Part shown: piece after piece, positions 27,101 to 30,100 of the stretch
How the letters are laid out: each line of letters opens with the position of its first letter
How positions within the stretch are numbered: the first letter of the stretch is position 1
Assembly: GCA_963978095.1 (NCBI GenBank)
Contig: CAXBQP010000002.1
Coordinates: forward strand, 64,001 to 128,000
Source: an uncultured bacterium
GTDB lineage: Bacteria > Gemmatimonadota > Gemmatimonadetes > Gemmatimonadales > Gemmatimonadaceae
Length of the DNA stretch: 64,000 nt
Reading direction: 5' to 3'
Program-made: the position numbers

Positions 27101-30100
27101 GCTCGATGACCGACATGTTGCCGATCGCGTCGAGGATCTCGTCCTTGCTCAGAGTCGCATTAGCCATTGTCAGATATCTCCGTGAAGAATCCCCCAGGAC
27201 AGCCTGGGGCGTTGTTGGTCAGGCAGACGCCTGGGGATTGGAACCGGCCTCGAGTTGCGCCACGCGCGCCTCGAGCGTGAGCGCGAACATCGAGAGCACA
27301 CTGTTGAAGCAGCCGAGCAACTGGCCGAGCGCTTCGTCCCGGGTCGGGAGCGAGGCGAGCTTCTTCACGAGCGCCGCATCCACCGTGGCGCCCTCGTAGA
27401 TCCCCCCCTTCACCTCCGGACGCGAATCATTGGCCTTCGCGAAGTCGGTGAGGATCTTGGCCGCCACCACCGCATCCTTCGCGACGACGACGCCCGTGGG
27501 GCCCTTAAGCCGCACGCCGACGCGACCGCTCTCGTTCACGGCCTTCAGCGCCAGCGTGTTCTTGATGACGACGTAGTCCACGCCCGCCTTGCGGAACTGG
27601 CGACGGAGCTCGGTCATCCGCTTCACGTTCAGCCCCGTGAAGTCGGTGTAGTACAGGGCGTTCGCGCCCGCCATCTTGTCCTTCAGCTCGGCGACGAGCT
27701 GTTCCTTGTCGGATCGCTTCATCGTCGGTTACCGGTACGGGGTGGTATCGATACGGACGCCGGGGCCCATCGTGCTGGACACGGCCACCGTCTTCACGTA
27801 CACGCCCTTCGCCGCGCTCGGCTTCGAGCGCACGATGGTGTCCATCAGGGCGGTGAAGTTCGTCTCCAGCGACTCGAGCGGGAACGACACCTTGCCGATC
27901 GCGGCATGGACGTTGCCTCCCTTGTCGACGCGGAACTCGATCTTGCCCGCCTTCGTCTCCTTCACGGCCTGGCCGACGTTGAACGTCACCGTCCCCGCCT
28001 TCGGGTTCGGCATCAGTCCGCGCGGACCGAGCACGCGACCAAGGGCACCGATCTGCCCCATCTGGTCCGGCGTCGCGATCAGCACGTCGAAATCCATCCA
28101 GCCTTCCTTGATCTTCGCGATGTAGTCGGTGCCGACGAAATCCGCGCCGGCGGCCTCGGCTTCCTTCGCCTTGTCGCCGACGGCGATCACCAGCACGCGC
28201 ACCGTCTTGCCGGTGCCGGCCGGGAGCACCACCGTGCCACGCACGATCTGGTCGGCGTGACGCGGATCGACACCCAAGCGGATCGCCACGTCGACGGTCT
28301 CGTCGAACTTGGCGAACGCGGCGCCCTTCACCTGCTCGAGCGCGGCCTTGGGGGCCACCGCCGCGTTGAGGTCACGCCCCTCGGCGACCTTGCGATACTT
28401 CTTCCCGTGGGTGCGCATCAGTCGCGAACCTCCACACCCATCGAGCGCGCCGCGCCTGCGATCATGCGCATGGCGGAATCGATCGATTCGGTGTTGAGGT
28501 CGGGCATCTTCAGCTCGGCGATCTGCTTGACCTGAGCCTTCGTGATGGTCCCCACCTTGTTGCGATTCGGCTGCCCCGAGCCCTTCTCGATCCCCACGGC
28601 CTTCTTGACGAGCACCGCAGCAGGCGGCGTCTTCAGGATGAACGTGAAGCTCTTGTCGGCGAAAATCGTGATCTCGACCGGGAGAATCGTATCCTGGCCC
28701 TGCGTCCGAGCGTTGAACTCTTTGCAGAACGCCATGATGTTGATTCCCTGCGGTCCGAGCGCGGTGCCGACCGGAGGGGCCGGGTTCGCCTTGCCTGCAG
28801 GAATCTGCAGCTTGACGAATCCTACGGCCTTCTTTGCCATGGAACTCCTCTAGACACGTAGAGCGGAGCATGCGCCGGGGACCCTGCCCCGCGAATGTCC
28901 GCTGACTCCCACGGTGTGATTAGCGTCGTTGTGGTAGCCGACGGGTGCGCTCCTCGCTGGTTCTCAGCTGCCCCGCGCAAGGGCACGAACACCTTCAGTT
29001 GACCTGCACCAACCACCAGCACCAGCCGCGCCTAGTGCGCGCGCAACTGGAGATAATCGAGTTCCACCGACGTGGGACGACCGAAGAGCGAGACGCTCAC
29101 CCGGACCTTCCCCTTGTCGGGCATGACGTCCTCGACCGTGCCATTGAAATCCGTGAAGGGCCCTTCCGTGATCGCCACGGCCTGCCCGACGAGGAACGGG
29201 ATCTCCTCCTTCGGCGCGACCTCCTCCGCCTCCTCGGCGCGGCCGAGCAGGCGGTTGACCTCGTCCTGACGCAGCGGCTGCGGATCACGGTCCTTGCCCA
29301 CGAACTTGATCACGCCCTGGATGCTGCCGACGGTGTGCAACGTTTCCTCGCCGACGACCATCTCGACGAGGACGTAGCCCGGGAAGACCTTGCGCTCGAC
29401 GGTGACCTTCTTGCCATTCTTGATCTCCACCGCCTGCTCGGTCGGCACGAGGGCCTGCCGGATGAGGCGCAGCTCCGCCGGCGCAGGATCGCCGTCGATC
29501 TTGCGCTGCAGCAGGTTCCGGACCTTGTTCTCGTGGCCGGAGGTCGTCTGCACGGCGTAGAAGTGATGCGTCACGTCAACCACCGAAGAGCGCCGGGATC
29601 CAGCGCACCAGGAGGTTCTGGAAGAGCAGATCCATGAGCGCGATGACGCCACCGATGAAGAGCGAGAGGATGACCACGCCGATGGCCAGCTGCCGCACCT
29701 GCGGCACATCCGGCCAGGTGACGCGCTTCATCTCCACCACCACCTCACGATAGAACTCCGTGAGGCGCTGGGGGACACTCGCCTTCGGGACCTCGGCGAC
29801 GGCCACTACTTGGTCTCCTTGTGCACCTGATGCTTGTCGCACCGGGGGCAGTACTTCTTCCACTCCACGCGCTCCGGGTGGGTGCGCTTGTTCTTGGTCG
29901 TGAAGTAGTTCCGATTCTTGCACTCGCCGCAGGCGAGGATGATCTTTTCGCGGGGCATGACCTTCGTCCTCAACAAAAGTTCGACCTTCACCAGCACCTG
30001 CTCAGAGCACGCAATCGGGATCGAACCGATGACCTCATCCTTACCAAGGATGTGCTCTACCGACTGAGCTATGCGTGCAACGTGCGCACCAACGCACCGA

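Follow-up and report, generated by a model that had tools for sequence, protein, structure and literature searches.

A candidate pseudoknotted, circularly permuted L1-binding site in the rplK-rplA leader of Gemmatimonadales

The window, the whole 64,000-nt stretch of a Gemmatimonadaceae genome analyzed here, carries on its minus strand a spacer of about 191–194 nt that runs from the nusG stop (29032) to the rplK start (28840), followed by rplK and rplA (Table 1). The names nusG and rplK are our assumption, taken from the initial annotation together with familiar sequence motifs. The overlap of rplK and rplA recurs in 108 of 115 loci from the order. Searches of the nusG-rplK spacer for promoter and terminator consensus sequences returned none, and one promoter-like site lies upstream of a tRNA cluster, at 30501. 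Metatranscriptome contigs, which cannot reveal transcription or co-transcription, cover nusG, the leader and rplK with the core unchanged. The spacer contains a conserved RNA element that the initial annotation had placed at 28900–28945; these limits hold for the region of the first two helices, P1 and P2, but are too short for the element as a whole, whose 3' end reaches 28857.

Table 1. Features of the rplK leader and the genes that follow it, in positions of the window
Feature	Position	Strand	Evidence
Upstream module, separate, probably a second pseudoknot	28945..28984	-	28/70 own-family leaders
P1 hairpin CGUCG/CGACG, first stem of the predicted H-type pseudoknot	28924..28943	-	sequence, folding, covariation
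A-CCAC within the loop of P1 (an unpaired A, then the H77-mimic 3' strand), corresponding to the 3' half of the canonical L1 site moved 5'	28931..28935	-	alignments, Fu 2013 consensus
Loop 3 (L3), with conserved AA right after P1	28913..28923	-	65/67 own-family sites
GUGG, 5' strand of the H77 mimic, pairing with CCAC (P2)	28909..28912	-	conservation, covariation
N-A-G: variable bulged base, conserved A, G that opens P3	28906..28908	-	same variation in Fu 2013 rows
P3 (H78 mimic) and conserved G28857	28857..28906	-	partner and second-pair counts
Shine-Dalgarno (SD) of rplK, 5 nt past G28857	28845..28851	-	sequence
rplK (uL11), 140 aa	28418..28840	-	open reading frame
rplA (uL1), 229 aa, intact	27729..28418	-	database search; start overlaps rplK stop (TGATG)

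Read 5' to 3' on the minus strand, the sequence CGUCG (28943–28939) is followed by the loop GCUA-CCAC-AA, by CGACG (28928–28924), by an 11-nt linker, and then by GUGG (28912–28909) and GAG (28908–28906). P1 alone folds with −5.4 kcal/mol (z −2.8), and plain minimum-free-energy folding of the full 194-nt spacer gave no unusual stability (z 0.17). The predicted fold is an H-type pseudoknot, with two crossing stems, loops that can be spanned, and compensatory change in each stem. Its geometry across sites comprises a P1 of 4–6 bp, a first loop of 2–4 nt, a P2 of 4–5 bp, a second loop of 0–2 nt and a third loop of mostly 3–13 nt. Based on the sequence, the AA after P1 probably makes minor-groove contacts to P1, and P1 may be stacked on P2 in the way that H76 is on H77. 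The first loop of an H-type knot would cross the deep groove of P2 and leave the shallow groove free, which is the face that L1 reads.

We surveyed 150 rplK loci, of which 115 belong to the order, 20 to other orders within its class and 15 to another class; they were chosen from 185 and 144 matching genomes in a way that favored genus spread. Leaders were parsed with patterns built after the loci had been seen, a loose parser requiring a P1 of at least 3 bp and a strict form requiring at least 4 bp. The loose parser fit 107 of the 115 order leaders (67/70, 36/41 and 4/4 in the three families) and 2 of the 35 leaders from elsewhere, both of those matches lying inside nusG coding sequence. Strict fits numbered 98/115 in the order (26/30 among the first loci and 72/85 among later ones), 0/35 outside it and 15 in 23,000 shuffled leaders. 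Within this genome the strict form fits 10 of 3,874 SD-bearing ORF starts, one of which is rplK, and 33 places genome-wide; since the combination of P1 and P2 is not unique within the genome, it is position and covariation that carry the case. A positional P3 filter on the genome matches was too loose (7 of 10 passed) and was given no weight. The pseudoknot of the initial annotation, a CGUCG/CGACG stem whose loop CCAC pairs with GUGG followed by GAG, is upheld; the annotation's figures of 27 of 42 rplK loci and 3 of 2,555 upstream regions were not reproduced exactly, although ours agree with them in kind.

Eight of the 115 order leaders gave no parse: three have G for the conserved A, three have a near-zero spacer, P1 is weak in another, and the last is unrecognizable. 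In L016, L017 and L019, all from one genus, a G replaces the invariant A of N-A-G with P1, P2 and P3 retained. The nusG stop adjoins the rplK start in L088, L101 and L149, which have no leader, and no site was found after rplK in these loci. Canonical L1 sites were found in 3 of the 115 order leaders and in 1 of the 115 stretches after rplK. Rfam models matched only tRNAs in the region 24000–36000 of the window, with nothing at the motif, and gave no match at the motif in 13 related loci, in keeping with the earlier statement that the element has no Rfam hit.

Covariation was measured in two MAFFT alignments of distinct sites, A1 (62) and A2 (40), against 500 shuffles and slid controls. P1 cells are paired in 91% and 95% of cases in the two alignments, compared to 29–61% in the slid controls. 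The P1 covariation score was reached by 0 of 500 shuffles in either alignment, where the shuffles ignore kinship and related loci are non-independent samples; this sustains the first-stem covariation claimed initially. Measures of pair count and pair type in A2 were no better than shuffles (363/500 and 147/500). The A, C, C and C of A-CCAC are invariant in both alignments, and N-A-G plus the unpaired A before CCRC are invariant in A1, a result that is partly circular as the parser includes both.

P2 reads CCAC/GUGG in 82 sites and CCGC/GCGG in 25. When two positions per strand were left free, 95 of 110 parses returned AC/GU (75) or GC/GC (20), crossed combinations were absent, and the remaining 15 parses were off-target. 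On a quick rplK tree with many forks open, the switch from CCAC to CCGC corresponds to 3 changes, in one clade of the second family, in the third family and at one locus of the window's own family (Gemmatimonadaceae), inside which P2 is nearly invariant. The compensatory change that had been proposed is thus seen with repeated origins and 0 crossed forms. The description of the helix in the initial annotation held for its four pairs but omitted a fifth, which in the sister families is Watson-Crick in 34 of 40 sites, like the 5-bp rRNA helix. Own-family sites show this pair in 26 of 67 (shuffle mean 18.5, maximum 28), so that it is unestablished there, and in this window the position is an A-C mismatch. 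The knot of the sister families is compact (about 45 nt), with a P1 of about 4 bp, a first loop of 3 nt, a P2 of 5 bp, no second loop and a third loop of 3–5 nt.

N-A-G leads into a third helix, P3, which was outside the first search pattern. The architecture first described, accurate in its pseudoknot and strand swap, did not include this H78 half beside the ribosome binding site. In this window P3 closes with G28906-C28858 and U28905-A28859, encloses an AGCGGA/UCCGCU inner helix with a variable insert, and is followed by the conserved G28857; in known sites that G is the partner of the A of N-A-G. These closing pairs have a probability of only 0.22 in free RNA of this genome. Across 104 distinct leaders, the best partner of the G of N-A-G is a C followed by G in 87 and a C followed by A in 13, which makes C then purine in 100; a C-then-G partner occurs in 44% of shuffles. 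We also applied a fold-free rule in which the C is picked by position alone, as a CG 11–21 nt before the start (present in 99/104). Under this rule the second P3 pair is Watson-Crick in 80 of 99 leaders, against a shuffled mean of 34 and a maximum of 51, with U-A in 37, C-G in 31, A-U in 8 and G-C in 4. P3 is mostly 10–70 nt long (range about 10 to 236 nt), and in 93 of 98 sites the conserved G is separated from the SD by 1–8 nt. Four leaders (L042, L043, L045 and L050) have P3 inserts of about 125–235 nt with the closing pairs still beside the SD; in L050 the best-scoring partner of the G is a nearer one.

The L1 consensus in the accessible text of Fu 2013 (PMC3616713) reads GUGGGAG-stem-CG-loop-ACCAC, tolerates GCGG/CCGC, other bulge bases and C-A, and is given for two known positions, rplK and rplA. 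The invariant letters of the leader all equal this consensus as given there, and when the leader is read from the 3' strand of P2 through N-A-G, P3 and C-G and back to A-CCAC, the consensus is spelled out once the chain order is permuted, as the initial annotation had suggested in describing swapped strands. Judged by its sequence, the element is a predicted L1 site whose chain is circularly permuted, with the cut in the internal loop. It has the GYGG/CCRC helix, a second stem opened by G and closed by C with G or A after it, and a place immediately upstream of rplK or rplA, close to the ribosome binding site. It does not fit the canonical alignment, a single stem-loop with GUGG 5' of CCAC, and given the swapped strand order we class it as a variant that would work like the L1-site family while standing outside that alignment. 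With the Fu 2013 element and the E. coli L11 operon operator it shares GYGG-N-A-G, the closing C-G, A-CCRC, the tolerated variants, both genomic positions and the nearby ribosome binding site. Unlike the Fu 2013 element, it has swapped strands, an extra P1 that creates the pseudoknot, and P3 as a separate downstream hairpin.

The strand-swapped helix had also been likened to the L1 site of this genome's 23S rRNA at C17:17775–17837. That segment does lie in 23S rRNA by the Rfam LSU model, in which it forms a GGUGG/CCACC and a GCC/GGC helix with a GA bulge between them, and its finer helix and nucleotide numbering we take to be that of H77/H78. We identify the segment as the L1-bound H77/H78 head by its agreement with the Fu 2013 consensus, by the naming of H76–H78 as the L1 site in PMC5309774, and by the customary helix numbering. 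P2 resembles GGUGG/CCACC (5 bp in the sister families), and N-A-G with P3 resembles the GA bulge and the next helix. The element differs from the 23S site in its connectivity and in having no long loop B, and P1 would at most substitute for H76 by stacking. Counting against the mimicry, the base after the closing C in this genome's 23S rRNA is A, not G. The E. coli S15, S4 and L20 operators, as their sources describe them in part, also place a pseudoknot near the start of a ribosomal protein operon, but have other ligands and unrelated sequence.

From the sequence, its conservation, the covariation of three helices, the position and the operon layout, we infer a three-dimensional fold, L1 binding, repression and translational coupling. 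Very probably, the element is a circularly permuted L1-binding site through which the rplK-rplA (L11-L1) operon is autogenously controlled. A-CCAC would come first, displayed in the P1 loop, and pair with GUGG to form the pseudoknot, with P2 mimicking H77; N-A-G would then open P3, which would mimic H78 and has a G directly after its closing C. Surplus L1 would bind at the corner of P2 and P3, as it does on 23S rRNA, and clamp P3, and with the 3' end of P3 only 1–8 nt ahead of the SD this would block 30S loading on rplK. L1 synthesis would be expected to drop too, given the overlap of the rplA start with the rplK stop. At the canonical E. coli-type operator, according to the accessible portions of two sources (PMC3616713, PMC10931766), L1 blocks initiation and coupling carries the block on.

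Two predictions for this genome count against this model: the low probability of the closing P3 pairs, and the lowest-energy nested fold, which pairs GUGGGA with the start-codon region. The latter is also what speaks for a switch, in which GUGG would pair over the start codon without L1 (off) and the L1-bound pseudoknot would free the start (on). Only 27 of 107 sites, however, are able to form the start-codon pairing, in 27 of 104 the nested ensemble leans towards pairing with the ribosome binding site, and activation would be contrary to the feedback logic of every known L1 site; we give the switch a very slight chance. We consider it very unlikely that L1 instead binds a simple local hairpin without a pseudoknot, GAC…UCAC/GUGG…GUC (28927–28904), in the manner of Thermaceae. 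This hairpin can form in this genome (−3.9 kcal/mol), and a permutation of that type is real in 30 of 30 Thermaceae, but it would disrupt the covarying P1 (−6.1 kcal/mol in the same calculation). Moreover, the linker 4-mer pairs with GUGG in only 12 of 67 own-family sites, and Thermaceae-type pairing of the 5' flank with the G after N-A fits 14 of 107. The rival folds open to this leader are not conserved.

Small H-type pseudoknots with an A-rich third loop are typical of some riboswitch aptamers, and in this order the element precedes rplK, not rplA. Both points would suit a real fold with a different ligand (L11, another ribosomal protein or a metabolite) or a fold that only shields the mRNA from decay. 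Such a role is unlikely, as the conserved letters coincide exactly with the L1 consensus, down to the variants it tolerates, and Microbacteriaceae forms without P1 keep the L1 letters. The motif also shifts to the rplK-rplA spacer in a sister order and alternates with canonical sites in Eisenbacteria, and Rfam gave no match in the window region or the 13 related loci. That the leader is simply a conserved stretch of a slow-evolving operon, alike by chance or drift and with no RNA structure, could draw on the 33 places genome-wide that fit P1 and P2. This is hardly credible given the covariation of P1, P2 and P3, which contradicts it: flanks and P3 interior vary freely while pairs covary, and only 15 of 23,000 shuffles fit. 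The reading we prefer is the permuted L1 operator.

Permuted sites were also found in other lineages. Several genomes of the sister order carry A-CCAC…GUGG-GAG with an extended closing stem before rplA rather than rplK (6 clear cases in 11 extra stretches). In the rplK-rplA spacers of L152, L153, L155, L158 and L159, all from this sister order, the scaffold is a different pseudoknot, in which the extended stem has a GAGCC-like loop able to pair with GGCUC immediately ahead of the rplA start; L154 has a similar pairing of loop and tail. A site in either strand order was absent from 15 of 15 other-class loci and from most sister-order loci, many of them searched with 150 nt after rplK. An unanchored pattern search of 151 sister-order genomes returned chance-level counts, equal to those of the reversed control, and served only to show additional copies of the rplA-side motif of one genus.

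A scan of one genome per species, set to find the swapped order at a constant spacing from rplK, gave at least 120 loci, among which those listed include 75 with a Gemmatimonad-like L11 and 45 others. Five of the 45 non-Gemmatimonad matches listed, canonical sites preceded by an additional ACCAC, were discounted as probable chance. L188, L194, L195 and L229 are canonical L1 sites with such an extra ACCAC, probably by chance; such a combination is what one would expect as an intermediate had duplication given rise to the permutation. For the other 40 matches listed, the best partner of the G is C-then-G in 37 with P3 outside the pattern, a raw count in which some probabilities are low and two of the 40 are Thermaceae of another type. 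Among the matches listed, Eisenbacteria and one Armatimonadota bin share the same pseudoknot, 22 Microbacteriaceae lack P1 and carry an inserted hairpin that separates CCAC from GUGG, and a few matches come by record title from proteobacterial and planctomycete bins, all subject to the errors that bin labels can carry.

The permuted and canonical forms alternate in Eisenbacteria, where, of 26 loci, 4 are permuted at rplK, 10 have a canonical site ahead of rplA, 2 give a loose canonical fit at rplK, 10 have neither kind and none has both. Four rplK leaders of this group with neither kind (L348, L352, L357 and L362) share the motif AUCUCGCAAG…ACCUC…, possibly yet another scaffold. In 30 loci of an actinobacterial order, canonical sites fit before rplA in 21, and two Microbacterium-like loci have only the permuted site. 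Two further actinobacterial loci have both permuted and canonical fits, one of which looks like chance, so exclusivity is not universal.

All 30 Thermaceae loci (from 30 of 33 genomes; L316, L318–L346) carry another permutation, opened in the loop of the second stem. Its helix covaries (CCAC/GUGG, CCCC/GGGG and CCUC/GAGG), and the site ends at the SD. Cut in the H78 loop, it forms a plain hairpin, whereas the Gemmatimonadales element is cut in the internal loop and pseudoknotted. The Thermus thermophilus L11-operon sites of Mikhaylina et al. 2021 (PMID 33941062), as cited in PMC10931766, come from this family, and the experimentally studied Thermus L1 region may already be a permuted one. On balance, we favor the broader reading that permuted L1 operators are repressor sites with several independent origins, two cut points and at least three scaffolds, which canonical covariance models missed and which went undescribed. 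The scaffolds would be the pseudoknot (Gemmatimonadales, Eisenbacteria and the Armatimonadota bin), the inserted hairpin (Microbacteriaceae and others) and the plain hairpin (Thermaceae).

A 2024 review, in its accessible portion, describes all L1 sites as an irregular stem-loop with an internal bulge (PMC10931766). Full-text literature searches, with subscription journals mostly outside their coverage, found no permuted or pseudoknotted L1 site. Term searches of the accessible Fu 2013 material (PMC3616713) gave no Gemmatimonad row and no L1 row for two Thermus accessions. The available main text of Eckert and Weinberg 2020 has no rplK, rplA, permutation or pseudoknot, and ribosomal proteins are absent from the accessible 2023 permutation paper by term search. 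Natural permutations are known for ribozymes and tmRNA, as the available parts of PMC10085705 and PMC2704228 state, and no permuted ribosomal-protein operator is described in the literature searched. The 2021 Thermus paper may already show the Thermaceae-type permutation, which would not cover the Gemmatimonadales pseudoknot. As far as these searches reach, the predicted element holds as a real, well-supported RNA and a new variant form of the L1 operator. The initial claim of a new architecture stands insofar as the searched literature contains none, but the element is one of several permuted scaffolds found in several phyla. If the model is true, L1 recognizes a three-dimensional corner regardless of chain order. 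This would help account for lineages seemingly without L1 sites, many of which sites were probably missed according to Fu 2013 in its accessible text (PMC3616713), and it suggests a renewed search of other leaders with permuted models.

The upstream module that precedes P1 (Table 1) is nearly invariant where it occurs. Its GCCYY/GGGGC stem carries a UGCGC loop that can pair with GCGCA further downstream, and a covarying hairpin lies in between. In 27 of the 28 first matches among the 70 own-family leaders the module adjoins P1 directly, and it was not found in other families. Its GAG-N-AG (variable N) resembles an L1 half-site, for which a partner strand was sought and none found. A half copy of the module, consisting of the first stem-loop only, lies at G000:C22:36984–37000 (+).
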